Shown piece after piece: positions 5,687 through 40,508 of a DNA stretch of 48,803 bases. The position numbers and the translations under genes are program-made. Source of the stretch: a virus (Duplodnaviria; Caudoviricetes); IMG/VR virus record IMGVR_UViG_3300035014_000025, positions 1 through 48,803 of that record; one strand, 5' to 3'. Numbering within the stretch: position 1 is the first letter of the stretch; the number at the start of each line of letters is the position of its first letter. The notes under the pieces are model-generated. The model was not told the origin of the DNA, did not search any database, and saw only the letters and a list, made by a program, of their open reading frames with translations.

Positions 5687-6396
5687 CAGCCAAAAACCCC
5701 GTTTTCCTTGGCGCGCTTCCACCGCGCGACCGCTGCTTGCCGTAGTTGCTCGCGCCACTCGGGCGTCATGATCCGGCCTGCCGAAGCCCGTCGAAGTTGC
5801 TCGCGTCCCTCCGCTGTTGCGGCTCGCTGTGAGGCCGAACGAGACATCTTCTCGCGCGCTTCTGGAGTGCTCGCCCCCTGTTTGGCCCTTGCCTGCTGTT
5901 GCTTCTCACGCGAGATCGGCTTTCGCTTAGACCTTGCTCGCTCAAGCTGTTCGCGCCCTTCAGGCGTCTTTGCGCGTTCGACCGCTGCTTGGCGCCGCTT
6001 CTCGATAGCCTCCGGCGAGTTCATTCTCGCTACCGCATTACTCCGGAACGCCGGATCGTCCCATCGGGCTCGGTGAGCTGCGGAAATCCGCGCTCTAGTG
6101 GCCTCGGACTTTTTCGGCGCGTAGCCCCCTTCGGCCACATTCAGCCCGTTCGGTTCCAACGTGCCAAACTTAGCGATCCAGAAGCATTCGCGGGCTTGCA
6201 GGTCTGCCAGCGGAACGCGCTCGATGACGGCAAAATCAAAGGCTTCTGGCCCGAGCAACTGTAGCGCTCGGCCTACGCGGGTGCGAGCATACGAATGAGC
6301 GCGCCACCGCCGCTCCGGCTTGTTGCGGGTCTGGCCGACGTAACACGGCTTAGCCGCCCCCTTGAGGGTGATCGTATAGATGAAGCCTTCGGTCAT
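5686..6396 (-). CDS. Free-standing GIY-YIG homing endonuclease with NUMOD3-like basic repeats
   Basis: GFIY...YVGQT, RWRAH, RECFWI, NGLN motifs; repeated SEATRARIS/TPEAREKMS/TPEWREQL units. Confidence 0.85.
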   Translation of the reverse strand: MTEGFIYTITLKGAAKPCYVGQTRNKPERRWRAHSYARTRVGRALQLLGPEAFDFAVIERVPLADLQARECFWIAKFGTLEPNGLNVAEGGYAPKKSEATRARISAAHRARWDDPAFRSNAVARMNSPEAIEKRRQAAVERAKTPEGREQLERARSKRKPISREKQQQARAKQGASTPEAREKMSRSASQRAATAEGREQLRRASAGRIMTPEWREQLRQAAVARWKRAKENGVFG

Positions 6397-7100
6397 CCGA
6401 ACAAGCTCCCCAACCGGATGCCCTGATTGGGCGCTGCGGCCACCATCGTACCGACGCCCGGAATGACGCTCACCCCGCGGGACGTGGCGGCGCTGGTCAT
6501 GAACGGCAGGTTTCCGCCCGCCAGCCCTGCGCCCGTGGCGACCGTGCCGAGACCGCCGAGCAGATCACCGAGGAAATGTGCGCCGTCGCCGGCGTGCCCG
6601 GCCTTGTCGAGCTCGTAGGGCACCACCGAGGCCGAACCGGTCTTGAAGCCGCCGATCTGGGCGACCTGGCCGGCGTCACGCGCCGTGGCGAGGCTCTTGT
6701 CCGCCAGCACGTCGCCGAACGCCCGCAATTCACCGAGCGCGTCGGCCTGCTGATTGGTGAAGTCGCGTGCGTCGGTGCGCTGTTGGTCTTCATTCCGGAC
6801 AACGATGTCCGACGACGAGGTCGGTAGCGCTGCAACGGGCGCGGGCTCTTCGACGGCCTGCCCCCGCAGGTAATCGCCGAGCGCGACGCTCCGGTCGGCC
6901 TGATCGGCGCCGAAGTCCTGATAGCGCTGGCGCGACGTGAGGTTGATCGCGTCGGCCTCCTGGTTGAGGCCGCGCTGCCGAATGCGCTCCGCCGCGAGCG
7001 CGTCGTTGCGCGCCGCCTCGATCTGCGTCTGCGCGGAGTAGTTCGCGACGGTCGAGCCCAGCGTCAGGGCGATGCCGGCGATGGTCAGCGGATCACAAAT
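6393..7100 (-). CDS. Internal virion protein with putative ATT start (235 aa, (M)CDPLTIAGIALTLG...)
   Basis: Frame stays open 124 codons upstream of the track's TTG at 6728; GGAGG-CCGAT-ATT at 7110-7098; in-frame TAG at 7112-7110; MCDP-type N-terminus. Confidence 0.8.
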   Translation of the reverse strand: MCDPLTIAGIALTLGSTVANYSAQTQIEAARNDALAAERIRQRGLNQEADAINLTSRQRYQDFGADQADRSVALGDYLRGQAVEEPAPVAALPTSSSDIVVRNEDQQRTDARDFTNQQADALGELRAFGDVLADKSLATARDAGQVAQIGGFKTGSASVVPYELDKAGHAGDGAHFLGDLLGGLGTVATGAGLAGGNLPFMTSAATSRGVSVIPGVGTMVAAAPNQGIRLGSLFG

Positions 7101-7109
7101 ATCGGCCTC

Positions 7110-7733
7110 CTATCGCACGACGACGGCGTTTGACGAGGGGGTGAACAGCCCCGTGTTATACCGGCCGCCTGTCTGGCCTCCGGAATAGTAGTTCGCCTTT
7201 TCCAACGCGGCCTGCGTGCCGAGCGTCGACGTGAAGTCGGCGAAGAGATTGGTCAGCGGACTGAAGGCGGCCGGCTGCGTCAGCGCCGAGGCCCGCGTGA
7301 TGGCCGAATTGGCGGCGCCCTGCGCATCGCCGGTGGCGTTGAGCATGGCGATCAGGTTCGAGCGGGCGTCTTCCACCGAAGCCTTGGACTGGTTGACGTA
7401 GGAGAGCGCCTGGTCGCCAACCTGCTGTTTCGTCAGGTCGTACTTCTTCTGGAGTTCGGCCGCTTTCGTACCGCGCGCCGAACTATCCAGCAGGCCAGCC
7501 CGATCGAGTGCATACGCGAGCTCGCGCTGCGCCCCGGAATACTGGTCCTCGAGCTGCGGGTTGGCGTAGTCGAGAAAAGCCTTCTTGCGGGCGTCGTAAA
7601 AGCCGTTCGTGAACTGGTCGTCGAACGTCTTGTTGATCTGCGTCGTGCCTTCGCGGACACGCTTCTGGCGCGCCTGCTCGTCGGCGCGAGCCAGCGCCGC
7701 CTCGTTGCCCCCGCCCTTGTTGCTATCGCCCAT
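7110..7733 (-). CDS. Internal virion protein
   Basis: 207 aa helical protein with MG-x-GGG N-terminus, in the ejection gene block. Confidence 0.65.
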   Translation of the reverse strand: MGDSNKGGGNEAALARADEQARQKRVREGTTQINKTFDDQFTNGFYDARKKAFLDYANPQLEDQYSGAQRELAYALDRAGLLDSSARGTKAAELQKKYDLTKQQVGDQALSYVNQSKASVEDARSNLIAMLNATGDAQGAANSAITRASALTQPAAFSPLTNLFADFTSTLGTQAALEKANYYSGGQTGGRYNTGLFTPSSNAVVVR

Positions 7734-8181
7734 CCGGCATCGCCCGTCTCATCGAGAACCCCACGCGCTTGAAGCCAAAATGCTCCAGAAACCTTGCGGT
7801 GCGCTCGGAGTTGAACTCGTTGTCATTGCCGCCCACAATCTCACGGGCGCCGAGCTGATCGCTCCAGGCAATGAGTTGTTTCATCAGGATTGCGGCTGCT
7901 CGACTTCCGCGGCGTTCGGGCAGGACAAATATAACCTCCTGCGTGGTGAAAAGTCCATCCGCTGCGCGATACTCGTAGAAATCGCAAGTCAGGAAGGCGA
8001 TGACCTCCCGCTTGTCCTCGACGACGAAGAACGTCGGACTGGCGCGGTCGAGATACGACTGCAACGTGCGCCGGCAGCGCTCCTCGTTGAACACCATGTC
8101 GGGACGGGTGTCGGCGACGTTCATTCGAGCCATGCGAACAATGGCGTCGAAGTCGTCCTCAAGCGCCAGGCGAACGAACAT
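7723..8181 (-). CDS. GNAT-family acetyltransferase-like protein
   Basis: Start moved to ATG 8181; VRLA-EDD, FVLPERRGS-AA (motif A), FLEHFGF (motif B). Confidence 0.8.
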   Translation of the reverse strand: MFVRLALEDDFDAIVRMARMNVADTRPDMVFNEERCRRTLQSYLDRASPTFFVVEDKREVIAFLTCDFYEYRAADGLFTTQEVIFVLPERRGSRAAAILMKQLIAWSDQLGAREIVGGNDNEFNSERTARFLEHFGFKRVGFSMRRAMPDGR

Positions 8182-8446
8182 CGCGATACCCCGGCCATAT
8201 GTCATCGGCAACGCCGCCCGCGGCCTCGTACCCTGCGATGTAGCCGTACACGTAGCCGTTATCGGCGCGGCCTCCACATTCTAGGCAGTCGTACTTAGCG
8301 CCCAGCGTGGCCTTCCCGCCCACGAAACGGTGCCGCTTGCAGCCTGCCAGACGCACCGAGTTCGCCTTTGCAGCGGCGGCGATCTCCAGCAGGTCGCTTC
8401 GAGATAGCCCGGTGAAACCCGCGATCTTGTCCAGACTGTCGCTCAC
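8159..8446 (-). CDS. Small Cys/His-containing hypothetical protein
   Basis: GTG 8446 overlapping the upstream stop (GTGA), with GAGGA RBS; CKRH...CLEC motif. Confidence 0.6.
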   Translation of the reverse strand: MSDSLDKIAGFTGLSRSDLLEIAAAAKANSVRLAGCKRHRFVGGKATLGAKYDCLECGGRADNGYVYGYIAGYEAAGGVADDIWPGYRDVRSPGA

Positions 8447-8919
8447 GTTTTGATCCTCGCGAACTGGATGAAGGCTTCGCCGTGACGCCCGTAGTTCAGC
8501 ATCGGAGCCGTCTCTTGCTTGAGACCGAACAGCCGAAGCCACTGATGCGTCTGCGCGTAGTCGTGAAGCGAGATGGCCTGGATGCGGTGAATGCCGGCCG
8601 CCTCGTACCGGTCGAAGAGCCGACGGAAGAAACGCGTCACGGGCAGCGCCACTTTCGGGAAGTCGTCCGTGGCGAAAAACAGCAGCGTAATGACGTTCGG
8701 CCAAGCCTCTATCGTTCCGGCGATGCCGACGGGCGCCTGCTCATGATAGATCGCAAATACGTCCTCGCGGCCGCCGTAAGACCGGGACAGCACCCCGGCC
8801 AATTGCTCGCGGGTATCGGCTGGCGACACGGCGGAAAACTCGGCGAAGTCGCGGTCGCGCATATTCAGCGCGACGTGCCGTACGGCGTCGGCTGTGGCGC
8901 GCTCAATCTTCATCGGCAT
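8443..8919 (-). CDS. GNAT-fold virion assembly protein (T7 gp13-like position)
   Basis: VALNMRDRDFAEF...QWLRLFG...GEAFIQF pattern, directly after tail tube B. Confidence 0.6.
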   Translation of the reverse strand: MPMKIERATADAVRHVALNMRDRDFAEFSAVSPADTREQLAGVLSRSYGGREDVFAIYHEQAPVGIAGTIEAWPNVITLLFFATDDFPKVALPVTRFFRRLFDRYEAAGIHRIQAISLHDYAQTHQWLRLFGLKQETAPMLNYGRHGEAFIQFARIKT

Positions 8920-10969
8920 CGAGATCGTGATGGATGACGACGGAGCTCAGCCGCGCTGCGCCGGTGCCTTGCGACCGGAACCGCAAGCTCAGGTGGGTGG
9001 ACGAGCCGATCTGCGGCAGTTTGTCGCCGTTATAGGTCGTCTTGGACAGCACGTTGACCGGGTCTTCGACCGTCAACTCCGTTGGCTGCATCGCCGCCGC
9101 AACCGCCCACTGCCCTTCGAGCGCGGCGTCCATGCTCTCCCACGTCTTCGCCCGCGTGGGCTGGTTCGCGTCGAGATACGGCAGCCAGGCCTCGGCGACA
9201 GTGCTGTCGTAGACCTCTTCGGCGCCGAGCCCACCGTAGACGTAGATCGTGTTCCCGGAGCGCAGATAGACGCGCTGCTTGAAGACGACCATCTGCTCCA
9301 CCGTGAACCCAGGCTCGTAAGTGGTCCATGCGCTGACCTTTGCTCCGCCGAAGTACGAGAAGACGAAAATCTGATCCTTCACCGCAAGCCAGTAGCGGCC
9401 GGTGCTGGGCTCGATGCAGCTTGTCACCAGCCCGGCCTCGTCTTCGGCCACTTCCTTGAGGGCGGCGCGCACCAGCGTGTCGATGGGCACGCCGATGTCG
9501 GTCGTCGACGCCGCGTTGGAGCTGTCGCGCGCTCGTAGCGACCGCACGCCGCCGTCGACGTAGAAGATGTCGTTGTCGCCGAATTTGGTGACGCTGTTCG
9601 GGTAACGCGTGCCCGTATTTTCGAGCGTCTGCACTTCACGGTTCAGCGTCGGATCCGGGTCGACGTACTCGATCTGGGTCGTCTTCTCGGCGAACACCGC
9701 CACCGAGCTCTGGTACTTGGCCAGCGCCACCATGTCCTCGAGGCCAGCGGCGATCGACGACATGTCGATGAAACCGGCGCCGGTCGTGTCCGTCGTGAAT
9801 TTGGTCGGCTGCTTGAGGCCGGAGAAGTGCAGGTTCGGTCCCGATACCGAATACATCTTGCGGCCGACGGTCTTCACGAAGGGGCCGGGCTGAAACGTCG
9901 TCGTGGCGTCGGCCCCGTCCGCGAGCGCGAGACCGGTAGCTGGACTGACGACGAGCCCGTTCGCCAGCGTGAACACGACGGCGCGGCCGTTGGCGCTGGC
10001 GCTGGCTACCGCAGCGATGATGTTGACGCGCGTTCCGGCCGCGGTGGCTGTATAGTCTGGCACCGAGGTCAGGGAGTTGATGGCGGCGGCAATGAGGGAC
10101 GCCGTGTTCTCATGGCTGGTTGCCCAGGAGACCGGCCCCGTCAGGACCGAAACGCCGTCCACCTTCAAGTCGGATAGCTGCGACGTGATGGCTGCCGCGC
10201 CGCCCGACATGACCACGCCATTGCCCGTCGTCGCGTTGCCCGCGACGCTAACGACGATCGCTGTGCCGTTGATGGCGGTCCCTGTTGCCGCGGCGGTGAC
10301 ATTTACCGTCGGCCCGTTCGAGGTCGCGGAGTAGTCCGGGCTCGAGGAGAACGAGTTGATCGCGGACGCGAGGGCGGCCGCGGTCGTGGAGTTGTCGCCG
10401 GTGTGATCGACGGCGGCGCCGATGATCGACACCCCGTTGATCTTGATGTCGGTGATCTTGTTGACGCCCGCCGACAGCGTGCCGCCCGTCACCTGGAAGG
10501 AGCCCGTGGCGGCTACAGCCGGGGTAACGCCGCCGCCCGTCACGTCGAAGGACGCCCGAGCGCGGCCATCGAACCAATCGGTGACGCGCACGCCGTCGTA
10601 GAAGTGGAATATCGTGCCGTCGACGAAGAGCCCCACCGCGTAAATCTTGCCAGCGTAGAGCTCGGCGCAGAGAACCTCGTCGAGTGCCGTAACACCGTCG
10701 GAATGCTGAAGACGCTGATACGAAACGCCGCTCGGGAGCAGTGGCGCCGGATCGCTGCCGAAGACGTAAACGCCGATCGAGTTGTACCAGAGGCCGAACG
10801 TGCCGGCGGGGAGGCTGTAGGTCGGCACGAAGGCCGCGCGCTTCTCGAACTCGCCACCGCTCGTGATGTGCCCGTTGACGGCCTTCACCAGAACGCCACC
10901 AGCCGTCGTCTCGGGCAGACGCCGGGCGTCTAGGCCGCCGGTGAACTCTTTGATCCAGATGTCGCCTAT
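8903..10969 (-). CDS. Tail tubular protein B/nozzle with putative ATA start (688 aa)
   Basis: Frame extends 27 codons above GTG 10888 to GGAGG-CCGAA-ATA; the extension carries IWIKEFTGGLDARR; beta-rich body, follows the adaptor gene. Confidence 0.75.
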   Translation of the reverse strand: MGDIWIKEFTGGLDARRLPETTAGGVLVKAVNGHITSGGEFEKRAAFVPTYSLPAGTFGLWYNSIGVYVFGSDPAPLLPSGVSYQRLQHSDGVTALDEVLCAELYAGKIYAVGLFVDGTIFHFYDGVRVTDWFDGRARASFDVTGGGVTPAVAATGSFQVTGGTLSAGVNKITDIKINGVSIIGAAVDHTGDNSTTAAALASAINSFSSSPDYSATSNGPTVNVTAAATGTAINGTAIVVSVAGNATTGNGVVMSGGAAAITSQLSDLKVDGVSVLTGPVSWATSHENTASLIAAAINSLTSVPDYTATAAGTRVNIIAAVASASANGRAVVFTLANGLVVSPATGLALADGADATTTFQPGPFVKTVGRKMYSVSGPNLHFSGLKQPTKFTTDTTGAGFIDMSSIAAGLEDMVALAKYQSSVAVFAEKTTQIEYVDPDPTLNREVQTLENTGTRYPNSVTKFGDNDIFYVDGGVRSLRARDSSNAASTTDIGVPIDTLVRAALKEVAEDEAGLVTSCIEPSTGRYWLAVKDQIFVFSYFGGAKVSAWTTYEPGFTVEQMVVFKQRVYLRSGNTIYVYGGLGAEEVYDSTVAEAWLPYLDANQPTRAKTWESMDAALEGQWAVAAAMQPTELTVEDPVNVLSKTTYNGDKLPQIGSSTHLSLRFRSQGTGAARLSSVVIHHDLDADED

Positions 10970-10982
10970 TTCGGCCTCCCGC

Positions 10983-11720
10983 TCAGGTTGGCGGGCGGTA
11001 GGTCGTGATGGCCGGACGGCGACGCGCCGGCTCGTCGGACCCGAACATCTTGAACCGGCGGCGCGGCATCAGCTTGCCGCGCGCCTTGGCGTAAAGCCGG
11101 CTGGCCTGGTCGAGCTTCAGCTGCGCGTCCTTGGCGCCGGTGGCGGCCAGATAGTCCGCGGCGGCCGACTTGACGAGGATCTGGTCGTCGAGGTCCGCCG
11201 TATCGCCGTCGTCAACAAGCGGACGCAGCTTGCGGATGCCCGTGATCCGCAGGCGGCCTTCCAGCGTCGTGCTGTCGGCGTTCACGTCCGGGATCGGCCA
11301 GATTTCGATCTGCTCGTCTTCGTAAATGCGCCAGCGGCAGGCCGGGGACGAACGCACATCTAGCTCGCTGTCGTGGGCGGCGTAGTGGCCATCGTCGATG
11401 CCGGGATCGAGGGGTACGTAAGCACCCGACACGCGGACGCAGACCGTCTGGACGCGATCGATGACGAGATCGTCGAGGACTTCGCCGTCGAGGTTCACCG
11501 CCGTGGCGAGGTCATAGAAACGCTGGCCTGCCTGAAGATCGATGAACCGATCGACGCGCAAATGGGGCCAGTCGAAATCGTCCCAGAACCACTCCTGCTT
11601 GCGCTGGAGTTCCTTGACCTGGGTGTCGCGCACCTGGTTGTTGTGCGCTGCGTTGAGGGACAGGCGGCACGCGGCCCGATAGTCATCGAGCAACTTGATG
11701 AGGGTCGTTCCGCGCGCCAT
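10983..11720 (-). CDS. Head-tail adaptor/tail tubular protein A
   Basis: 245 aa; WDDFDWPHL and IEIWPIPD motifs; synteny. Confidence 0.7.
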   Translation of the reverse strand: MARGTTLIKLLDDYRAACRLSLNAAHNNQVRDTQVKELQRKQEWFWDDFDWPHLRVDRFIDLQAGQRFYDLATAVNLDGEVLDDLVIDRVQTVCVRVSGAYVPLDPGIDDGHYAAHDSELDVRSSPACRWRIYEDEQIEIWPIPDVNADSTTLEGRLRITGIRKLRPLVDDGDTADLDDQILVKSAAADYLAATGAKDAQLKLDQASRLYAKARGKLMPRRRFKMFGSDEPARRRPAITTYRPPT

Positions 11721-11732
11721 TGAAGCTCGCCC

Positions 11733-12323
11733 TTACTTGAACATGTCGGCGTCGGGCATGTCCTCGATGCCGTCTTCGGGCTCCTCGGACTGCGCTTCGG
11801 TGGCGCCACCGACCGGCGCCGCTTCCTGCTGCGCGGCATCGCCGGGCTCGGCGTCGGCCTTCTTGGCACGCTTCTTCGCGCCGCCCTTCTTGCCGTCGCC
11901 GTCGTGGTCGAGCGGATGGACGACTTCCTTGCCGATGACCGGAGCTTCGCGCGACTGCTCGGCCTCGCGGCGTTCCGCGGGCGTGGCGCCGGCGTCGCTG
12001 ACGCGGGAGGCCGGCTTGTAGAACTCTTCGGGAAGCTCCAGCTCGGAGAAATCCTCGAACAGGCGGGCCGCGACGCCGGGGAACAGCATCTCGACGGCCT
12101 GCGCCGTGGTGCGGCCCTCGACACTGCGACCGTACCGCTCGACGAGGCGCTGGCGCTCCTGGCGGCTGGTGCGTTCGACCTGGCCGTAGGGCTCGATTTC
12201 CTTGACGCTCTCCTCGCCGTGGATGATGCGGAGAACCGCAACCTCGGAAGGGGTGACGGCGCTCTTCGGTACCGTGTTGCCGGCATCACCGCCGAGCGAA
12301 AGAAGAATATGGGCGAGCTGCAT
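11733..12323 (-). CDS. Hypothetical structural-region protein with acidic tail
   Basis: AGGAG RBS plus ATG; 196 aa; ends DMFK. Confidence 0.65.
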   Translation of the reverse strand: MQLAHILLSLGGDAGNTVPKSAVTPSEVAVLRIIHGEESVKEIEPYGQVERTSRQERQRLVERYGRSVEGRTTAQAVEMLFPGVAARLFEDFSELELPEEFYKPASRVSDAGATPAERREAEQSREAPVIGKEVVHPLDHDGDGKKGGAKKRAKKADAEPGDAAQQEAAPVGGATEAQSEEPEDGIEDMPDADMFK

Positions 12324-12360
12324 TTCAGGCTCCTATTGGGTGGTTGGTCGGTCGGGCTGG

Positions 12361-12390
12361 CGAGGACGGGACCGAAAGCCCCGCCCTCTG
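12361..12390 (-). terminator. GC-rich stem-loop (terminator or mRNA-stabilising hairpin)
   Basis: GAGGGCGGGGC-TTTC-GGTCCCGTCCTC on minus; no clear U-tract. Confidence 0.4.
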
Positions 12391-12405
12391 ACCCCTGGGA
12401 GGGGA

Positions 12406-13086
12406 TTACTGACGATCGCTATCGTCGAGACGGATGCGCACGAACACCGTGCCCGAGCCTTCGGCGAAGGCTGTCACCGACGCGGCTTCGATCGAAATCG
12501 CGTCCTTCTTGGTGATGCGGTTGTTACCGGTGATGTCCGTGCCCTGCACGATCTTGCCCATCGTGTTGACGCCGACAGTGGTGAGCGCCAGCAGACCGCC
12601 AGACAGGTTCGTCGTGTTGATCTCGGCGTTCAGAGTTGCCAGCTTCGACGCCGTGGTGGCGGGAACGTTGGTGACGAACGAGATGTCCTCGACGTAACCG
12701 TCAACGCCCGGACGGAAGTCCGTGACCACGTCCTGCGTGCCCGTGATCGACGCGAGATTGACCGGGAAGGCCAGCTCCAGCACGTTGTTGCCGTTCTGGG
12801 TGTCGAAGAAAAGCTCGACGGTCGAGCCGGCGGCCCAGGTCACGCCCGAAGAGTTCGTCACGGTGATGAGCGACGCGCCGTAGGTCGCCGAGACCTTGGA
12901 GGCCGCGCCGGTCAACTTGTCGTTGCCGTTGACGATGGCGTAGAGGCCCGCCGAAACGAGGAGGCCGGCATTGAAGTCGCCCTGCGAGAAACCCGAGGGG
13001 TAGGCGATGGTGAAAGTGCCGCTGTTCGCCACATCCGCCGCGAGAACGGTGGGCACGCGAGCGAAGCGATCTTTGACCTGAGGCAT
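12406..13086 (-). CDS. Probable capsid decoration/minor structural protein
   Basis: 226 aa, Thr/Ala/Gly-rich and beta-like, immediately after the major capsid gene; GGAG RBS. Confidence 0.6.
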   Translation of the reverse strand: MPQVKDRFARVPTVLAADVANSGTFTIAYPSGFSQGDFNAGLLVSAGLYAIVNGNDKLTGAASKVSATYGASLITVTNSSGVTWAAGSTVELFFDTQNGNNVLELAFPVNLASITGTQDVVTDFRPGVDGYVEDISFVTNVPATTASKLATLNAEINTTNLSGGLLALTTVGVNTMGKIVQGTDITGNNRITKKDAISIEAASVTAFAEGSGTVFVRIRLDDSDRQ

Positions 13087-13113
13087 TTGCGATCTCCGCT
13101 ATGCGATGAGGGG

Positions 13114-13139
13114 AGCCGGGCGCCTTATGGCGTCCGGCT
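13114..13139 (-). terminator. Stem-loop after the major capsid gene
   Basis: AGCCGGGCGCC-TTAT-GGCGTCCGGCT on plus; no U-tract, so possibly a stabiliser or partial terminator. Confidence 0.45.
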
Positions 13140-13152
13140 TGTCCGTTCCGTC

Positions 13153-14232
13153 TTACGCGATGTCGTACACGCCCGACGTGTTGAGCTGCTTCGCCACCAT
13201 CACACCGGTCATCGTGATGCCGTTGTACATGACGTAGCGGTCATACGGCCGCGCGGGGTTGTGCTTCTTCATGCGGTTGCCGTCCATGTAGAGCAGACGG
13301 ACACCGGTACGGCCCATGTCGATGACGTACATACGCTTCGACAGACCGAGATCGTCGAGGGTCGGATCCCAGACGATGTCGATGCCCTTCCACTCGACCG
13401 GCCCCTGCGAACCATCCACCGTGCCCTTGAGGCCGGTGTTGGTGTAGTAGCCGTTGGCGCGCATTTCCTTGCGGTAGGCGGCGATCCAATCGGAGCCGGC
13501 GAACAGCTTGTAGCGGCTCGAGCCCTGACGGTACTTCGAGAGCTGGAGCCACTCCTTCTCCATGAACTCGATGAGCGCGCCGCCGTTGGCGGTATTCGAC
13601 GTGATGGCGCCCTGGCCGCCGGCGAGGCCGTTGGCGACAGTGGCGGCGCGGTTGCGCCACCAGGTGTTCGCCACGCGGCCGATCGTGCCGGTCGTGCCGA
13701 CAGTCGGGCTGTCGAGGATGAGCGCCTGGATGCCGGCGATGGCCTTGGCGTCCGACGAGCCGTCACCGTGGATCAGGCGGTCGAGCGAGTAGGCGTAGTC
13801 TTCGCCGAGCGTGTCGTTCTTTTCCTCGAGAAGGTTGGCAAGCGCCTGGTTCTCGCGGTCGTCCATCGGGGACGTATTCTGGTCCGCACCGTCCTCGGTG
13901 ACGTTGATGCCGTCGACCTTGAGCTCGGTCATGGTCACGACCATGCCGATGTGGTGCTCCTTCCACGGGAAGCGCGCACGCTTGATGCCGGTCGGGTTGT
14001 AGTAGTTGACCTGGTCGTCGCCCGAGTAGCCCTGAAGCGACCCGCCGCCCTGCCCGGCCTTCACCGCGAAGGAGACGTTGTCCTTGCCGCCGGTGAACTT
14101 GCCGGCAGCGGCGTTGAACGCCTCGAGCATCGGCTTGTTGGCGACATTCTGCTTGAAGACCGTGCCGCGGTCGATGAAAGTCTCGAGTACCGCGTTGTTG
14201 ATGTTCGCGATCTCGTCGGAAGTGAAAGGCAT
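13153..14232 (-). CDS. Major capsid protein
   Basis: 359 aa after portal and scaffold; strongly biased codon usage; IHGDGS, WWRNRA and IVWDPTLDD segments. Confidence 0.85.
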   Translation of the reverse strand: MPFTSDEIANINNAVLETFIDRGTVFKQNVANKPMLEAFNAAAGKFTGGKDNVSFAVKAGQGGGSLQGYSGDDQVNYYNPTGIKRARFPWKEHHIGMVVTMTELKVDGINVTEDGADQNTSPMDDRENQALANLLEEKNDTLGEDYAYSLDRLIHGDGSSDAKAIAGIQALILDSPTVGTTGTIGRVANTWWRNRAATVANGLAGGQGAITSNTANGGALIEFMEKEWLQLSKYRQGSSRYKLFAGSDWIAAYRKEMRANGYYTNTGLKGTVDGSQGPVEWKGIDIVWDPTLDDLGLSKRMYVIDMGRTGVRLLYMDGNRMKKHNPARPYDRYVMYNGITMTGVMVAKQLNTSGVYDIA

Positions 14233-14251
14233 CGCGCCTGACCCCTATTGC

Positions 14252-15244
14252 TTAGGCCGTCGCCCGATTGGCGCGCACGATGTCGAGCACGCTCAGGTTT
14301 TCGGGCTTCTGGCCGCCTGCGACCGTGCCGCCTGTCACTGGACGGATCGCCGGTTTCTTCTGCGGCTGGGCGGGCTGGCGGACCTGCTGGGGCAGTGCAT
14401 CGTTGACGGCCTTGTAGGCCTTCTGCAACTGCGCCACGACGCCTTGCGGCGTGGTCGGCTTGCCCTCCGAGTGCTGGAGAAACAGGATTTCCTTCTGGAG
14501 CGAAGGCAGCTTGCTCTCGAAGTTCGGGTCTTTCTGGCGGCGGTTTTCTTCCCAGGTCGCCGCGGCGCCGGTTAGGGCGCTCGCTGCGGTGTTCGCTTCC
14601 TGCCGTTCCCGCTGTTGCTGCTGGAACGACGTGCGGACCTGCGTCGCCTGCACGGCGGCATTGGCCCGGCTCACCTGAAGGGCCGCTTCCTGGCTCATCT
14701 CACCGTTCTGCACCTTGAGGCGCAGGTCTTCGGGGAGGACTTCGCCGGCCGCTACGAGTAGGGCCTGGACACGCGGCTTCAGGCGTTTCCATGCTTCCAC
14801 CGGATCGGTCTTCATCAGGCTCATGATGAGCATGCCGTCGGCGGCTTCTTCCGCGCTCAGACCGTTGGTGTCCAGGAAGTTCTGGACGTTCTGGTAGCGG
14901 GTCGCGTCCTGCTTGTAGGCGTTCGACTGCCGCAGGAGTTGCTGGAAACGAGGATGCTTGTGGAACGGAACGTCCGAGAAGTTCTCGTTGTCCTGCTCCT
15001 TGGGAAGCTCAGCGCCGGTCGACTGACCGTCATCTTCGCTTTCGGCGGGCGAGGCCGACTGATCCGGCGCCCGGCTCTTGTCGATCGCATCGCGAGCAAC
15101 AGAAAGCAGGTCGGCATCAGTTTCGCCGGTCGCGTCGGACGAGTTCGCGGTGTCAGGCGCGGCCTGCTGGCTTGCCTTATCGTCCAGGGCGGAACTGGTG
15201 GACGGCTCCAGTTCCTCGATTTCGTTATCGTCCAGGGTGGGCAT
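14252..15244 (-). CDS. Scaffolding protein
   Basis: Acidic disordered N-terminus, VPFHKHPRFQ, coiled-coil body, between portal and capsid. Confidence 0.7.
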   Translation of the reverse strand: MPTLDDNEIEELEPSTSSALDDKASQQAAPDTANSSDATGETDADLLSVARDAIDKSRAPDQSASPAESEDDGQSTGAELPKEQDNENFSDVPFHKHPRFQQLLRQSNAYKQDATRYQNVQNFLDTNGLSAEEAADGMLIMSLMKTDPVEAWKRLKPRVQALLVAAGEVLPEDLRLKVQNGEMSQEAALQVSRANAAVQATQVRTSFQQQQRERQEANTAASALTGAAATWEENRRQKDPNFESKLPSLQKEILFLQHSEGKPTTPQGVVAQLQKAYKAVNDALPQQVRQPAQPQKKPAIRPVTGGTVAGGQKPENLSVLDIVRANRATA

Positions 15245-15316
15245 GAAAGCTCCTGTAGTTTGCCGGTGAATTTACGGGATGTCGGTCGTTGTCGCAAGTC
15301 ATTCCATACAAATGAC

Positions 15317-17524
15317 CTACACTGGCGCGGCCACCTGGTTGGAGCCGAAAGAAGGACCGCTTTCGGCCGCGCCCGGCGGCTGGGGCGCGTTGTTGGCGCC
15401 CTGCCCTCCTTGCTGGTTCGGGTCGGCCTGCGGGTCGGCCTGCGCACCCTGGGGCGGCGCGAGCTGCTTCTGCTGGTTCATCGCGACGATCGACGGAATG
15501 CCCGAGGCGATGGCCTCGGTCACGTCCATCCGGTCGTCGAGGCGGCGCAGCGTCTCCTTGAGCATCCAAGTCGGCTCGAGGCCCGGCATCTGGAGCAACA
15601 GCGGTACGATCTGCTTCCAGTTGTTGATCTCGATGGCCTGGTTGGGCTTGCCTGTGGAGCCAGCCTGCACTTCGAGGAACACTTCGCTGGCAATGTCGGC
15701 AAGTGACATTTCCGGCCACACGGCGCCAGGACCGACGATCTCGGTGACTTTCTCTGGCGACATCTCGCGCTGAAGGATCTGGCCGGACGAGCGAGCGATG
15801 ACGGTCAGGAAGCTGTCGAGATCATCGATGCTCGACCCGTCGGACGAGGCCGAGGAATTGGCGGCGATGGCGCTCTCGGTCGCGGTGGCCTTGGCCACCC
15901 CGCCGAACTGCGCTTCCTGCGTCCCGACAACCAGCTGCGTGTCGGTGAAAATCTGCTCCGTGGCGTAGAGGTTCGGGTCAACGCCGGGCACCGGCAAGGT
16001 CTGGAGAATTTTGCCGATCTCGGATTGCGGGTCGATGTTGAGGCCGAGTGCCTCGAACGGCTTGAGGTTCTTGAGGATGAGCGGATCTTCCTCGTCGCCG
16101 AACGAACCGTTGGCGAACACCCAGCGCGGCCGGGCGGCGTCACGATGCTCGCGCATGCCCTGCCGGGAGCGGTTGTGTTCCTTCTGCATGTCGATCATCA
16201 GCGACACGTCGGACGGCGGGAACAGTTCGTCTTCGCTCTCGACCGCGTTGAAGGTCAGCGCGTAGACGGGCCAGAAGTCCTCAACGAAGACATCGGGCGC
16301 TGCGGGCTCACGGAGAAAATCCTTATAGCCGTCCGCCACATAGTAACAGAGGCCGGAAGCCTTGTCGTAATGCTTCCAGACGCAGACCATGCCGGCCTTC
16401 TTGTCCTGCGGAAGCGACCACTCGTAGTCGTCGTCCATCACGTCGTTGGCGCTGATCTCGCGCGACGATCCCGCATTGGCGTTGTAGCTGGTATAGCCAT
16501 CCTTCAAGTCGATACCGAACATCTCCTCCACTTCGTCGGTGGTGAAGAGATACTCGACCGAGATGTGCCGGGCGCCGATGAAACCGTCGAGAGACTTGCA
16601 CAGCTTGTCGGGGATGACCTTCGTCGACTGCGGGAAATCGATGATGAGACCCTCCCGCATGATAACCTCAGGCTCCTGCTGGAGCTGCTGGATCGAGAGC
16701 TCCAGTTCGGCGCGCTCGGCGCTATCCTCGTCGATCTCGCCTTCCGCAAGGTCCTGAGCGAGATGCTTCAGATGGTCGAGGCGGCCGCGCGCGTCGGCGA
16801 GGCTCTCGGTCAGGCCGGGTCGCGGGCCGTATTCACGCTGAAAGCCAAGCTCGACATAGGCGACGCCGCACGTGCAGGCCCGGCGAACCGTCTGCTTCAT
16901 GCCCCGCTTGAAGTCGAGCGGCTTTTGCTCCTGGAGGGCGTAGGCGAACAAGACCTCGAGGGTCTTACCGTACTTCGTGATGAACTGCCGGCGTGAGTAG
17001 CCCTGCTGAAAGTCCTGGATGAGCGCCATCGCCTGATCGAAGCCGGGAGGCAGCTGCGGCTGCGCCGGAGTGGCCGTGCCGAAGATCGGATCGATCGTTG
17101 GCGGCGTCATCTGCGCCTGCTGCATGGCAAGCTGACCGGCCTGGATCGTCTGGTAGGCCAGCATGAGCGACTGCGGGTTTTCGTCCCAGATGGCGAAATC
17201 GAGTGTCTCGCGGCGCGCGGCAGTCGCCTTCGGGTTCTTGGCGTAGAGCGCGGCCGTCTTCTGCTTCACATGCCGGCCGGCGATGTTGGCGCGGTACTTG
17301 TCCTCGCCCCAATCCTTCTCGGCGCCCCACATCGCGACCTGCATGTCGCGGCGCATGCGCTTGAAAGCCTTCTCGTGGTGCTTCTTGTCGGCCTTGATGG
17401 TCTGGAGGATCTGCTTGACGAGCGCGGCGCGCTGCGCCGGCGTCTGGCCCTGCCCTTCGGCCTCGTTCGTCGCGGGCGCGGCCGAAATGTCGGTTTGTCC
17501 GGCGCTGTCGTCCTCGAAATCCAT
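15317..17524 (-). CDS. Portal protein
   Basis: Start moved to ATG 17524 (GGAGG RBS, TGATG); about 735 aa after TerL; ATATE motif and Gln/Pro-rich tail. Confidence 0.85.
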   Translation of the reverse strand: MDFEDDSAGQTDISAAPATNEAEGQGQTPAQRAALVKQILQTIKADKKHHEKAFKRMRRDMQVAMWGAEKDWGEDKYRANIAGRHVKQKTAALYAKNPKATAARRETLDFAIWDENPQSLMLAYQTIQAGQLAMQQAQMTPPTIDPIFGTATPAQPQLPPGFDQAMALIQDFQQGYSRRQFITKYGKTLEVLFAYALQEQKPLDFKRGMKQTVRRACTCGVAYVELGFQREYGPRPGLTESLADARGRLDHLKHLAQDLAEGEIDEDSAERAELELSIQQLQQEPEVIMREGLIIDFPQSTKVIPDKLCKSLDGFIGARHISVEYLFTTDEVEEMFGIDLKDGYTSYNANAGSSREISANDVMDDDYEWSLPQDKKAGMVCVWKHYDKASGLCYYVADGYKDFLREPAAPDVFVEDFWPVYALTFNAVESEDELFPPSDVSLMIDMQKEHNRSRQGMREHRDAARPRWVFANGSFGDEEDPLILKNLKPFEALGLNIDPQSEIGKILQTLPVPGVDPNLYATEQIFTDTQLVVGTQEAQFGGVAKATATESAIAANSSASSDGSSIDDLDSFLTVIARSSGQILQREMSPEKVTEIVGPGAVWPEMSLADIASEVFLEVQAGSTGKPNQAIEINNWKQIVPLLLQMPGLEPTWMLKETLRRLDDRMDVTEAIASGIPSIVAMNQQKQLAPPQGAQADPQADPNQQGGQGANNAPQPPGAAESGPSFGSNQVAAPV

Positions 17525-19185
17525 CAAAAACCTCCAGCCGAGATCCGGGCGCGCTTCTCCTGCTCCCAGCGGTCGGCCTGCTTGACCCAATCGAGCGTCC
17601 CGAACGTGGGCTGCTTGACCGCCTTAGTATCAGCTTTTTTGCCCGGTGCGAACTGGCTCTGCAAGCCCAACCCGATCCAAGCGAGCGCGTCGACGAAGTC
17701 GTCGTGCGTCCCGTTGGGGAACGCCATCATCTCGTTGATCGCTTTTTCCACCCACAGCATGCCGAACGGAAAAAAGACCTTGCCCATCGCCACGCGGCCG
17801 ACAATCGACTGCGCGCGCTGGGCCTTGTCGGCGACGGGCGTCACTTCGCGGATGTTGACGTAAGTCCCCGTCTCGACCATTCGCTTGCGCAGAAACGGGC
17901 CGATCGATTTGCTGATGTGGCCGCGCTCCGCCCACCAGAGAAGAGGCTTGTTGGCTCCGCGGCACATGGCCAGCATCGCCTCCACCGCCACGTCGGCCTT
18001 CATCTTCCGCCAGACGCACTCGAGCAGGTAAATGTTGTTGTCGCGATCGACGCCGATCTTCAGGAAGCAGCTGGGATCGTTGCGCTGCCCGGTGCCGACA
18101 GCGTGGTCGGACGACGCATAGATGCGCAGATCATCGGGAAGCGCCACGTTCGTTCCGGGGCCGTAGAAGCGGATGTCCTCGCGCTTGAACAAATCGCCGT
18201 CAAGCAAGCTGGGCCGCTGCTGGTAGAGCGCGGCGAAGCCAAGTGGATCGAGCGCCTGCTGTTCCTGGAGGAAATCGAGCCCGAAGGCATCAGGGCCGTC
18301 CGGCCACAGCGGTTCGCCCGGCGCGCGGCCCAGCGGATCGTCCTCTTCGGCGATCGCCGGCAGGTTGATGATTTTGATCTTCTCGGCGAGCTTGACGTTG
18401 TAGTTCGGGTTCTCCGGGTCCGTCAGACGCCCGATCGGGTCGTCGGAATGCCACCGGGTGAAGGTCATGATGACCAGCTTCTTGCCCATGCGCCGGCTCA
18501 TGGCGACCTTCGTGAACCAGTTCCACGCCTGGTCGCGGATCGCCTGGCTCTGAGCTTCCTTGTCGTCCTTGATGAGGTCGTCGATGATGAGCAGATGCGC
18601 GCCGCGGCCGGTCAGCGAGCCACCGCGGCCGACAAATGACCATTGCCCGCCCTGCACGGTCTGAAGGCGGTCCGACGCGCTGCCGCCGCGCTGGAGCGAC
18701 ACCGTCGGGAAGACCTGCTTGAACTGCGGCATCTTCACGATGCCGCGCACGTCCTTGCCGAAGTCCATCGCGAAATCGTCGTTGTAGGTCGCGACAACGC
18801 CGTTGAGCTGCGGGAAGCGCCCGATGAACCACGCCGGCAAGCGACGGCTGACCTGCTCGGATTTGCCGTGCCGCGGCGGCATGGTGAGGATCAGAAACGG
18901 GATGTTGCCCTCGACGACCTCCTCGATCACGCGAGCGATGGCGTCGTGATGGCGGGCGTTCTTGTACTTCGATCGCTCGACATCGTTCGGATCCTCGGGG
19001 TCCGGCGACGTGAACTTGATGAAGGACATGAACTTGGTGCGCGCTTCGACGGCCTTCTGCTGGCGCCTGAGCAGGGCAATCTGCTGGTTGATCGCCTTGA
19101 GATCGTCGGCCTCTTTGCTGGCTTCAGCCTGCCGCGCCTCCCACTCGTAGCGTCGGCCCGTCTTAGGGTTGATGCCGCCGGCCAT
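17524..19185 (-). CDS. terL: Terminase large subunit
   Basis: Walker A MPPRHGKS, TGRGAHLLIIDD Walker B, TRWHSDD, ALYQQRP, FPNGTHDDFVDA nuclease motif; start moved to ATG 19185. Confidence 0.95.
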   Translation of the reverse strand: MAGGINPKTGRRYEWEARQAEASKEADDLKAINQQIALLRRQQKAVEARTKFMSFIKFTSPDPEDPNDVERSKYKNARHHDAIARVIEEVVEGNIPFLILTMPPRHGKSEQVSRRLPAWFIGRFPQLNGVVATYNDDFAMDFGKDVRGIVKMPQFKQVFPTVSLQRGGSASDRLQTVQGGQWSFVGRGGSLTGRGAHLLIIDDLIKDDKEAQSQAIRDQAWNWFTKVAMSRRMGKKLVIMTFTRWHSDDPIGRLTDPENPNYNVKLAEKIKIINLPAIAEEDDPLGRAPGEPLWPDGPDAFGLDFLQEQQALDPLGFAALYQQRPSLLDGDLFKREDIRFYGPGTNVALPDDLRIYASSDHAVGTGQRNDPSCFLKIGVDRDNNIYLLECVWRKMKADVAVEAMLAMCRGANKPLLWWAERGHISKSIGPFLRKRMVETGTYVNIREVTPVADKAQRAQSIVGRVAMGKVFFPFGMLWVEKAINEMMAFPNGTHDDFVDALAWIGLGLQSQFAPGKKADTKAVKQPTFGTLDWVKQADRWEQEKRARISAGGF

Positions 19186-19463
19186 CAGGGATGAAGCCGT
19201 AGCCCGCCGCTGACAACCCACGCTATCACGGCGGCTACAACGCTGCCCCCAATCGCGGTGAGCAGCCAAAAGCCCAACCGGTTCCAGCCCTCGATGCTGG
19301 AGTTCATGTTGGTCAGCTTCAGCTCGATCAGCTCGCGGAGTCCATCGAGCTTGTCGTCGAAACTTTTCGTCGCCGCCTCGATAACGGCGAGGCGCAACGT
19401 GAAGTCGTCCACTCGGCGGGTAAGCTGCGTGATGTCGCTCCGCATGCGTTCCATCTCATCCAT
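19185..19463 (-). CDS. Coiled-coil protein with C-terminal membrane helix (lysis cassette)
   Basis: Heptad N-terminus followed by LGFWLLTAIGGSVVAAVIAWVV. Confidence 0.7.
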   Translation of the reverse strand: MDEMERMRSDITQLTRRVDDFTLRLAVIEAATKSFDDKLDGLRELIELKLTNMNSSIEGWNRLGFWLLTAIGGSVVAAVIAWVVSGGLRLHP

Positions 19464-19503
19464 TCCGCCGCAATATCCTATCGAGCCCTGATCTATCGGC
19501 GTC

Positions 19504-20037
19504 TCAGACGACGCCGGCCTTCTTTTCTTCGCTGCGCTGCCAGATCTGAACGCCGAGCACCGCGCAGCCCGCCGCGAGCATGGTGATGAGCAGGCCCGTG
19601 ACTGCCTCGACGCCCTGAAGCTGGCCGATCCAGATGCCGCGGCAGACGGTGACGGCGATCATCACGAAGCAGAACGTGAAGGCGAGCGCGAAGATCGGGC
19701 GCCAGCGCTGTGCAAGCCATCCTTCGGTCTTGGCGTCGTTCAGGAGCACCTGCTGGTAGCCCACCATAACGTCGCGATTGGCTTCAGCGATCCGTGCCAT
19801 CTCGTCGGTAAAGCGCTGCTCGACATCGCGAACGACCGGCGCCGCCGCCACGGGATCGCGCTCAATGGCCTGCGTTACCGCTTCGGGCGTCGGGTCGGTA
19901 TGGAGCGCCTCGGCCAGAGCGTCGATAGCCGCGCCCGCCAGCATGCCGCCGACCCCGCCGATCGACTTCTGCACGACGGATTTCAGGACGGGCGCGCCGG
20001 CCTGTAACAGCTTGTCACCGAGCGATTTGAGGTCCAC
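19504..20037 (-). CDS. Holin (3TM/GTA-holin-like)
   Basis: WLAQRWRP motif followed by two hydrophobic helices and RSEEKKAG; adjacent to the endolysin. Confidence 0.75.
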   Translation of the reverse strand: MDLKSLGDKLLQAGAPVLKSVVQKSIGGVGGMLAGAAIDALAEALHTDPTPEAVTQAIERDPVAAAPVVRDVEQRFTDEMARIAEANRDVMVGYQQVLLNDAKTEGWLAQRWRPIFALAFTFCFVMIAVTVCRGIWIGQLQGVEAVTGLLITMLAAGCAVLGVQIWQRSEEKKAGVV

Positions 20038-20049
20038 GACGTGCTCCTG

Positions 20050-20997
20050 TCAGAGTTTCTTGAAGGCGGCGACGAGCTCGTCACGATAGCGCCAGGCCAG
20101 CCAGGCAAGAACCGCCGCGGCGACGGCGAGCCCACCCCACGGCAGCACATCGCCGACCCAGCCGAGATCGTGAACGGGCGCGTCGGCGGGCAACTGCACG
20201 CTATCGCCGGCGCCGGTCACGTCCTCGCCAACGCCCGCCACGACCGAGCCGCCGCCAATCGTTACGGTCGTGGTGGCGGCCTTCTTCAGGTCGATAGCGC
20301 GTTGCAGCGCCGAGAGCGTGGCGGCTCCGATAACGCCGTCGACGAGCAGATTGCCGTGATCTTTCTGAAAGCGCTTGGTCGCCTCGATGGTGCGGCCGCC
20401 CGGAATGCCGTCGGCCCGGCCACAGTCGTAGCCGAGGTCATTGAGCCAGAGCTGCGCCTGCTGGATGTCGACCGTATCGATGTGCGGCGCAGGGGCGGTA
20501 GTCGCTTCAGTCACCCACGACGGCCAGGTGTTGTATTCGGCGATGTCAGCTTCTTCGCCGCGCCGGCGCACAAGGCCGGGCAGACGCTTGCCGCCCGCAG
20601 TCGTGCCGGTCTTGCGCAGAAGTTCAGCGCCGGCGGCTACAGCGCCGCGAGCGATCGATCCGGCCCACTTCCAGCCCAGAGCACCGGGGCCGAGATTGTA
20701 AACGGCCGAGCACCCGGCCTCGATGACGTTGATGGGCTTGCCGCCGAACTTGGCCTGGACCGCCGGCAGCGCGTCGTGCTCGAGGATGGCCAACAGCACA
20801 GCGTAGGCGTCGGCCTGAGTGATGGTGTCGCCGCGGCGCATCTTGCGGCCGTGCTTCTGCATCCACCAGTCGCGAAATACCGGGTTGCCCCAGGTGAAGC
20901 CGTACCCGATGGTCGGCACGCCGGCGGGGTCGAGATACCAGCTCGAAACGAACCCCTCGTGGCCACCGATGAAGTTTACGATGCGCGCGGTGAGAAT
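20050..20997 (-). CDS. Endolysin: GH24 lysozyme + peptidoglycan-binding domain + C-terminal TM; putative ATT start
   Basis: HEG...YLDPAGVPTIGYG catalytic E/D/T, LPGLVRRR, DGIPGGRT...VDGVIGAAT; GGAG-CACCGAA-ATT at 21008-20995. Confidence 0.85.
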   Translation of the reverse strand: MLTARIVNFIGGHEGFVSSWYLDPAGVPTIGYGFTWGNPVFRDWWMQKHGRKMRRGDTITQADAYAVLLAILEHDALPAVQAKFGGKPINVIEAGCSAVYNLGPGALGWKWAGSIARGAVAAGAELLRKTGTTAGGKRLPGLVRRRGEEADIAEYNTWPSWVTEATTAPAPHIDTVDIQQAQLWLNDLGYDCGRADGIPGGRTIEATKRFQKDHGNLLVDGVIGAATLSALQRAIDLKKAATTTVTIGGGSVVAGVGEDVTGAGDSVQLPADAPVHDLGWVGDVLPWGGLAVAAAVLAWLAWRYRDELVAAFKKL

Positions 20998-21089
20998 TTC
21001 GGTGCTCCGCAGTGTCGGCCAATGTCTGTCGCTAATCCGGACATTACACGACAAGCTGCCGCGCTGGAAGAGGCTGCGGCCGGGGGTGA

Positions 21090-30599: not shown

Positions 30600-30790
30600 T
30601 TGCGGCCCTCCACAGCGGCCTGCGCGCGGCTATCCACCGGATTGAGCAGATCGTTGACGGGACTGTCGAAGGAGAACCAGCCGAACACCCCGAGACGGAT
30701 GCGTTCGTAATGGCGGAGCCGGTGGTAGCGAGGTAGGAAGCGAACCTGCCGCCGGGCTTGCCGGAAGTTCCAGCGCTGTGTCGGGGTCAT
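30596..30790 (-). CDS. Hypothetical protein
   Basis: ATGA-coupled at both ends. Confidence 0.5.
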   Translation of the reverse strand: MTPTQRWNFRQARRQVRFLPRYHRLRHYERIRLGVFGWFSFDSPVNDLLNPVDSRAQAAVEGRK

Positions 30791-31011
30791 TTGCGCACCA
30801 GCACGTCGAGCGCGTTCTGGACCTGACGAGCCATCGTCTCATCCATCGGCACTTGCTCAAGGCCGGGGTAGCGCATGCCGATCAGGTTCTTGGGATCGCT
30901 GCCGAACCGGAGACAGTACTTAGTCCACTCGTAAGTAGCGCGGTCCCTGTAGTCGCTGTCTGTCGGCTGGCCTACAAAATCTTGCGCATCGTCGTGGTCT
31001 TTGGTAGTCAT
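30787..31011 (-). CDS. Hypothetical protein
   Basis: GGAG-CACCGAC-ATG RBS, 74 aa. Confidence 0.6.
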   Translation of the reverse strand: MTTKDHDDAQDFVGQPTDSDYRDRATYEWTKYCLRFGSDPKNLIGMRYPGLEQVPMDETMARQVQNALDVLVRK

Positions 31012-34715: not shown

Positions 34716-34906
34716 GCCAATCGCTCGCCCTGACGCGAGGGCTCAGCTCCGGCTTGTCGAAAGCCATCGCCCGGCCTGAGGGCGTGGGGGTGGCCGGCCC
34801 CTATCCTGCGCCGGATGGCTACCACTGGGAATATGTCGCTGAAGACGGCGTGATTAATGCTGAAGACGGCGTGCCGGAAGTCGAACTGATGAGGAACGCC
34901 GCATGA
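34712..34906 (+). CDS. Small hypothetical protein (64 aa)
   Basis: GTG 34712 (GTGA overlap) and ATGA overlap with the next gene. Confidence 0.55.
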   Translation: MSQSLALTRGLSSGLSKAIARPEGVGVAGPYPAPDGYHWEYVAEDGVINAEDGVPEVELMRNAA

Positions 34907-40359: not shown

Positions 40360-40508
40360 GGCGCACCGAAGGCGATGGCGAGCAGGCCCACGAACAGCAC
40401 GACCAGGCAGAAGCCTTGATAGGCCACCACGAGCCAGTCGGGCACTTCGACGATGTGCTTGATCGTCTGGAGGGGCAGCCGGTAGCGCTTGACCACGATC
40501 TCGCGCAT
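40356..40508 (-). CDS. Small membrane protein (50 aa, not in the ORF track)
   Basis: [12 protein letters not shown]...FCLVVLFVGLLAIAFGAP; TAATG and ATGA overlaps. Confidence 0.55.
   Translation of the reverse strand: MREIVVKRYRLPLQTIKHIVEVPDWLVVAYQGFCLVVLFVGLLAIAFGAP

Follow-up and report, generated by a model that had tools for sequence, protein, structure and literature searches.

We analyzed a 48,803-nucleotide (nt) virus genome, IMG/VR record IMGVR_UViG_3300035014_000025 (Duplodnaviria; Caudoviricetes), taken as a whole and hereafter called the window. In this genome, the genes for the first ejection (internal virion) protein and for the tail nozzle very likely begin at true but weak start codons, ATT at position 7100 and ATA at position 10969, as judged from alignment with their homologs. 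Comparable codons recur at the same two genes across related phages, and we consider it likely, if no firmer than that, that they are real but weak starts kept by selection to hold the output of minor virion proteins low, without a dedicated switch. The first-pass annotation of this DNA had listed damping of expression by weak starts among its suggestions, and this is now the best reading of the data. A third gene, encoding the endolysin, has an ATT at position 20997 and is the weakest of the three cases.

All three genes lie on the minus strand. The ejection gene reads GGAGG-CCGAT-ATT at 7100 and opens a frame of 235 amino acids (aa) beginning I-CDPLT; the nozzle gene reads GGAGG-CCGAA-ATA at 10969 and opens a 688-aa frame beginning I-GDIWIKEF; and the endolysin gene reads GGAG-CACCGAA-ATT at 20997 and opens a 315-aa frame beginning I-LTARI. 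Homolog N-termini (M-CDPLT, M-G(T)IW(V/I)(K/R)EF, and M-LT(A/T)RI, respectively) fall exactly at these codons, and the alignment confirms the initial observation that a strong Shine-Dalgarno sequence (SD) stands at normal spacing before an Ile codon at the family N-terminus of three late genes. Canonical starts are differently placed. The first one in frame in the ejection gene is a TTG at codon +124, which has no GGAG SD, and a stop lies 4 codons upstream of the ATT; the nearest one in the nozzle gene is a GTG at codon +27, again without a GGAG SD; and the endolysin gene offers TTG at -19 and -41 and GTG at +26, none with a GGAG SD. A near-cognate codon at the homologous N-terminus, with no better canonical start, is clearest in the ejection gene. 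The motif by itself means little, as GGAG followed after 5-9 nt by ATH (ATT, ATC, or ATA) occurs at 36 sites in the window; what exceeds chance is the coincidence of SD and ATH with the family N-terminus, not the SD-ATH pair. Folding of the mRNA at the three starts gave no shared structure, and local energies (-7 to -15 kcal/mol) overlapped those of ATG genes.

To survey the family, we recorded which codon stands in the family start column of each gene in 247 loci, the window included, counting as one allele each distinct combination of 25 nt upstream, codon, and 12 residues, and treating ATT, ATC, ATA, and ACG as near-cognate. Near-cognate codons occupy the start of 25 of the 123 distinct ejection-gene alleles (ATT 12, ATC 10, ACG 3), with TTG in 11 more and GTG in 1, and of 6 of the 120 nozzle alleles (ATA 2, ATC 4). 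Five control late genes had none in 463 alleles (adaptor 0/111, capsid 0/97, second ejection gene 0/107, portal 0/63, and the gene at 11733 0/85). Divergent or uncalled ejection rows (L224, L164, L165) were dropped before counting, as were uncalled control rows (second ejection gene 1, portal 2, gene 11733 2). The genes at 7110, 8443, and 12406, the scaffold, the terminase, and the third ejection gene did not serve as controls because their N-termini do not align to one column. The acetyltransferase gene was also excluded, with 4 ATH codons in 100 calls, three directly after an in-frame GTG and one without an SD; in L150, L151, and L154 this gene carries AGGAGGA, GTG, and then ATT or ATC at the family start column, and either the GTG or the Ile codon may be its start.

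Start-agnostic scans of DNA, largely of the same contigs, found near-cognate codons in 8/40 ejection genes and 3/40 nozzles, and the codon in all 40 scanned ejection-gene relatives was ATG, TTG, ATT, ATC, or ACG, never one for another residue. An automatic census of families common to at least 5 of 26 complete genomes, with a start column that could be placed in only about 30 families, recovered SD-backed near-cognate starts in the ejection gene and the nozzle only; among families with a definable start column, the window has no further rare starts. GC content does not differ between start-codon states (0.638 vs 0.643). Existing protein calls are often truncated: in the closest ejection cluster, which has 28 members, the calls are short for 14 of the 15 that are listed, and likewise for all 8 of the closest nozzle proteins (87-90%), by 18-26 residues, while more distant nozzles are mostly Met-started.

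The shared CCGA spacer, to which the first-pass annotation had also pointed, is present at the three sites but is not special to them. N1-3 CCGA follows 19 of the 339 GGAG sites in the window, and two of these precede ATG (31011, minus strand; 34407, plus strand), the former being the GGAG-CACCGAC-ATG gene exactly as it had been described. As a ribosome-binding signature the spacer does not hold up: it is confined to the window and its closest relative L169 (2/25 near-cognate ejection and 1/6 nozzle alleles), and the L001 nozzle keeps its ATA behind a different spacer that has lost CCGA.

What does accompany the codon is the strength of the SD and the distance to the preceding gene. The SD consensus is AAGGAGG, and we scored a match of at least 5 nt to it as strong. 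In the ejection gene a strong SD precedes 25/25 near-cognate and 11/12 GTG/TTG alleles and 14/85 ATG alleles; in the nozzle the figures are 3/6 near-cognate vs 4/102 ATG, or 6/6 vs 6/102 if GGAG is counted. The median distance to the upstream stop is 12 nt for near-cognate ejection alleles (21 alleles) vs 1 nt for ATG (81 alleles), and 13.5 vs 1 nt in the nozzle. The ejection gene thus exists mostly in two layouts, a stop-adjacent ATG with a weak SD or a spaced ATT/ATC/ACG/TTG with a strong SD; lineages switch between them many times, and the pattern is gene-specific. A quick IQ-TREE tree of 121 ejection proteins, from which L240 and one more short row are absent, gives 19 trait changes, at least 11 of them forced by well-supported branches, and among 11 independent pairs on a FastTree tree SD strength follows the codon in 9.2 and opposes it in 0 (median p 0.004).

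Tolerated drift could produce rare starts as well, if need for the product is low, a strong SD suffices to keep a mutated start serviceable, and low output is not selected. Near-cognate ejection alleles do all carry the strong SD that such rescue requires, ATG with a strong SD exists in 14 alleles, the states are scattered and barely more clustered than shuffles (15/500 as low), and pairs of near-cognate alleles have a slightly higher ratio of nonsynonymous to synonymous substitution (dN/dS). We nevertheless regard drift as unlikely, since near-cognate codons make up 25/50 of the strong-SD ejection alleles and 0/169 of the strong-SD controls. GTG is a transition from ATG and the strongest alternative start; it is nearly absent, at 1/37 non-ATG ejection alleles, with a GTG:TTG ratio among strong-SD alleles of 1:11 vs 10:4 in controls, and ATA is absent from the ejection gene. 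The avoidance of GTG together with the 25/50 vs 0/169 contrast points to a preference for weak codons over free drift. In addition, the nozzle ATA shared by the window and L001 has been kept across a synonymous divergence (dS) of 0.71 while the spacer changed, at a dN/dS of 0.125 that equals that of the capsid (0.125).

The first-pass annotation had further argued that three start-codon losses are improbable as decay. For the ejection gene and the nozzle this stands, as their rare starts recur in relatives under purifying selection (dN/dS 0.13-0.24; for the ejection gene of the window and L169, ATT/ATC, dS is 0.61 and dN/dS 0.24), and its refuting case, that close relatives all have ATG, is not what we see: ATT, ATC, ATA, and ACG recur among them. 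The nearly unique endolysin case has little such backing. Decay or sequence error, most plausible for that gene alone, is very improbable as a general account. The endolysin ATT lacks a DNA-level parallel, and a Logan contig identical to the window over 6300-21300 (zero differences) may be source data and is hence not independent; against this, the same or equivalent codons occur in relatives, including the direct-terminal-repeat records G003, G004, G006, and G007, selection is purifying, the core genes of the window are full length, and its CheckV completeness is 100.

The endolysin survey could read 56 of 79 loci, which gave 43 distinct alleles from relatives 33-65% identical; relatives in 401 genomes are all less than 50% identical. 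The sole parallel is at the protein level, the 83% identical P0243 endolysin, which has Ile at the ATT position behind a called extension of 8 residues. An out-of-frame TTG lies 25 nt before the endolysin ATT (window 21022-20998, minus strand), and the sequence from it resembles this extension with an offset of one base (deduced for P0243 from protein only). The comparison suggests that the leader before the ATT is non-coding. The ATT at 20997 is probably the endolysin start, and probably the same device as in the two virion genes, recent in this lineage.

A more elaborate proposal of the first-pass annotation was a regulated gate, in which the codons make virion completion and lysis jointly dependent on IF3, ppGpp, or a phage factor. 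AUU and AUA initiation is lowered by IF3 excess and poor medium (PMC5499595), and M13 is blocked by IF3 overexpression (PMC2268962). Near-cognate states of the ejection gene and nozzle also co-occur, weakly (3/5 vs 10/80, p=0.024, one of the three being the window's own contig), yet 12 of 15 genomes with one such start are without the other, and none of the 42 other endolysin alleles is without a canonical start, so a joint gate finds little backing. No phage relief factor emerged, as none of 293 open reading frame (ORF) families follows the trait when 8 near-cognate and 14 ATG genomes are compared (26 genomes; best uncorrected p 0.022), although a factor common to all family members would escape this comparison. 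The IF3_C domain is absent from 25 phage records (24 relatives and the window), a positive control having been found in 10/14 bacteria, and we found neither a fixed codon and context across relatives nor a linked regulator, as an IF3 circuit would have. The close sisters L111 (ATT) and L006 (ATG) differ at 97% protein identity, no spacer is conserved, and the census left only two SD-backed genes. We consider such a gate quite unlikely.

Mobile endonucleases offer another route to altered starts. Junction insertion could rewrite the start region through co-conversion or target immunity; alternatively, a coupled downstream nuclease could be damped by a weak start. A gene of the HNH/endonuclease VII-like type is inserted directly before the ejection gene in eight alleles, where its end reaches or overlaps the start. 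Of these alleles, 7 are near-cognate and 1 TTG, and such a neighbor is found in 0/81 ATG alleles; both alleles with a downstream GIY-YIG gene, the window and L087, start with ATT. Altogether 9/25 near-cognate ejection alleles adjoin an endonuclease gene. Conversely, an upstream insert is lacking in 14 of the 21 near-cognate alleles that could be measured, 13 trait changes persist once insert alleles are removed, HNH is found in only 3/26 genomes, an ATG would leave the overlapping HNH frame intact, and 4/6 nozzle cases and the endolysin are left unexplained. We judge this route improbable; the HNH-insert alleles also fit rebuilding of a weak start once coupling is broken.

As for the inserts themselves, the HNH/endonuclease VII-like family lies just before the ejection gene in L111 (9310-10008), L116, L175, L194, L107, L219, L240, and L243; the SD is contained in the final codons of the inserted gene, whose stop is reached at the first codons of the ejection gene or among them. 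The GIY-YIG gene (phrog_314) separates the first ejection gene from the second in the window (5686-6396, minus strand), where it overlaps both junctions, and in L087 (1984-2760); of the 104 junctions measured here, only these two contain an insert, and in each the preceding gene starts with ATT. At the adaptor-nozzle junction, L109, L130, L234, and L106 have inserts of 510-717 nt without a convincing same-strand gene, which look like opposite-strand genes; the starts behind them are two ATC, one GTG, and one ATG.

Finally, the Ile or Thr codon might be internal, with the ejection protein fused to the upstream gene product by readthrough. The upstream stop is in frame in 13/13 insert-free near-cognate alleles whose gap measures 8-99 nt, vs 9/16 ATG and 3/7 GTG/TTG alleles. 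This reading is extremely improbable, given tandem double stops in L104 and L202, out-of-frame stops in L182 (gap 4) and the HNH alleles, nozzle gaps of 12, 13, 13, and 14 nt, and the fact that only start-capable codons ever occupy the position; a gap of 9 follows geometrically from TAG-GAGG plus a 5-nt spacer.

Selection for weak initiation, our preferred reading, would operate through two layouts. The stop-adjacent ATG would work by termination-reinitiation, and the spaced layout by SD-driven de novo initiation at a poorly decoded codon, at a low rate; selection would favor low initiation in both, most strongly for the gp14-like ejection protein, and any sensitivity to IF3 or ppGpp would be a by-product. 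Excess of this protein could be costly, because its T7 counterpart is insoluble, forms pores, and occurs in 8-20 copies (PMC8954989). Coupling requires overlaps or very short gaps (PMC10666635), and Staphylococcus aureus non-canonical starts behind extended SDs reportedly reach about 10%, and at most 30%, of the output from AUG (PMC13009471).

Several points weigh against this reading. The portal, adaptor, and second ejection protein, also minor proteins, never use such starts, and copy number alone is not predictive. A strong SD with ATG is evidently viable (14/85 ATG ejection alleles), and the SD-codon link would also be expected if a strong SD merely rescues start-codon mutation. Ejection dN/dS is 0.13-0.24 in 4 near-near pairs vs 0.06-0.09 in 3 pairs with an ATG allele. 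In recombining phages the history of the junction may differ from that in the protein tree, and recombination could blur the codon-SD pairs. The first 25 nozzle residues are of low confidence in the monomer model, and the structure does not show that a product from the GTG at +27 would be useless. The window is the only 1 of 43 distinct endolysin alleles without a canonical start, and the reading as a whole derives from sequence comparison. Damping may also be small, as in vitro, in an optimized context and rich-medium extracts, AUA gave 0.95 and AUU 0.74 of AUG output (PMC5499595).

Known systems resemble these starts in part. S. aureus cvfC1 (AUU), ccpN, and infC (AUA) likewise pair a near-cognate codon with a strong SD; these (PMC13009471) are chromosomal genes whose codon is conserved and proven by Ribo-seq, whereas ours are phage virion genes known from sequence, and their codon is labile among ATG, TTG, ATT, ATC, and ACG, swapped against stop-start coupling. 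Coupled genes (PMC10666635; M13 gene V-VII, PMC2268962) recall most ATG alleles, which have a weak SD and begin within a few nt of the upstream stop, unlike the near-cognate alleles, which stand 9-14 nt or more from it and have an SD of their own. Phage genes with start codons mutated in the laboratory, as cited in PMC5499595, use the same codons in phage mRNAs (T4 rIIB AUA, about 85% reduction; T7 0.3 ACG; HB-3 murein hydrolase AUA/AUU/AUC, 5-7.5% output); these are engineered or mutant alleles rather than natural family-wide variation. Escherichia coli infC (AUU/AUC) shares SD-led initiation at an IF3-discriminated codon, used for IF3 autoregulation (PMC5499595). Fixed regulatory circuits of this kind differ from the present case, in which sisters go back to ATG and neither a conserved element nor a partner emerged. 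Streptomyces sigR, another such circuit, reportedly starts at GTC, also an IF3-discriminated codon. A natural AUU start lies inside T4 gene 26, and pcnB has an AUU start. Our literature search, with most subscription papers and supplements outside its scope, did not find the T4 case and turned up no paper describing rare starts that occur naturally and family-wide in virion genes of phages. SD-compensated rare starts in chromosomal genes and phage mutants are already known; their natural family-wide use in phage virion genes would be the new side.

Table 2. Genes and ribosome-binding sites discussed in the text (window coordinates).
Feature	Coordinates	Strand	Remarks
Second ejection protein gene (gp15/gp20-like by position)	4235..5686	-	ATG start; control gene
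GIY-YIG homing endonuclease gene	5686..6396	-	phrog_314 E 5e-18, PF01541; ATG overlaps ejection-gene stop
First ejection (internal virion) protein gene, T7 gp14 / P22 gp7-like	6393..7100	-	235 aa; inferred ATT start
SD AGGAGG	7106..7111	-	Overlaps TAG stop of upstream gene; 5 nt from ATT
Upstream conserved virion gene	7110..7733	-	207 aa; stop in frame with ATT, 9 nt before it
Tail nozzle gene (tail tube B; T7 gp12 / P22 gp10 fold)	8903..10969	-	688 aa; inferred ATA start
SD GGAGG	10975..10979	-	5 nt from ATA; directly after adaptor stop (ATA-to-stop gap 13 nt)
Tail adaptor (tail tube A) gene	10983..11720	-	ATG start; control gene; PF24175 SU10_adaptor
GH24 endolysin gene, peptidoglycan-binding domain and C-terminal hydrophobic segment	20050..20997	-	315 aa; inferred ATT start
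SD GGAG	21005..21008	-	7 nt from ATT
74-aa ORF	30787..31011	-	ATG start; GGAG-CACCGAC-ATG, same spacer type, not tied to rare codons

The identities of the two virion proteins (Table 2) differ in strength. The product of 8903..10969, placed after the adaptor gene, is a podophage tail nozzle by its predicted structure: the AlphaFold model (pLDDT 83.5) matches podophage tail nozzles in Foldseek at E 7e-13 to 1e-8, including T7 gp12 (7boy), although a PDB sequence search gave no match. The gp14-like assignment of the ejection protein is weaker. It falls in an ESM Atlas cluster with PF24072 T7_gp14 (score 0.95), and PF24072 matches 13 of 51 aligned ejection homologs at E<=0.1 (best 1.8e-4), with no match to the window protein itself, which also has no PDB sequence match and no 19-residue stretch with hydropathy above 1.5. 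Genes of 483 and 995 aa follow downstream, and its position fits that of the first of three ejection genes.

The window is a complete temperate podophage provirus (CheckV completeness 100; GC 65%), with integrase and repressor genes at its right end in a domain search. It shares its genome plan with the cultured Rhizobium phage RHph_N65 (MN988536), which has no near-cognate start at either virion gene: its ejection gene (59% identical) starts with TTG and its nozzle gene (about 60% identical) with an ATG beside the adaptor stop. This nozzle gene (MN988536.1, L003, 3251-5014) is labeled 6-phosphogluconate dehydrogenase, an apparent mis-annotation. Endolysin relatives named Devosia suggest a host of that kind. 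A tRNA-Thr(GGT) lies about 95 nt past the left end (window position 1) in source contig L168 (17195-17269) and is the probable attachment site; the matching Logan contig, at 49,474 nt, is about one phage length. No phage-encoded tRNA was found in the window, and a promoter/terminator scan of it stayed near chance level. Other recognizable products are a GapR-like DNA-binding protein (40508-40792, minus strand; family in 25/26 genomes), a DnaJ-domain protein (33453-34124, plus strand; family in 6/26 genomes), a GDSL-family protein (34903-36300, plus strand), and a DNA methyltransferase (29341-30306, minus strand).

A bolder extension, which we hold to be rather unlikely, is that the pore-forming ejection protein and the nozzle have two interchangeable low-rate designs, of which the one with rare codons would tie the final stages of virion completion, and in the window also lysis, to the host's IF3 or ppGpp state, so that starved lysogens would finish fewer infectious particles. 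In practical terms, callers limited to ATG, GTG, and TTG truncate or mis-extend about one-fifth of the ejection genes in this family, together with some nozzle and lysis genes, and miscalled starts distort virion proteomics and structure prediction. More broadly, the family represents a natural, many-times-replicated experiment on whether rare bacterial start codons set a fixed output level, act as a regulatory sensor, or amount to noise that is tolerated, and close allele sets (L111/L006, L178/L184, and L109/L087/RHph_N65), together with a cultured phage, make the question directly testable.

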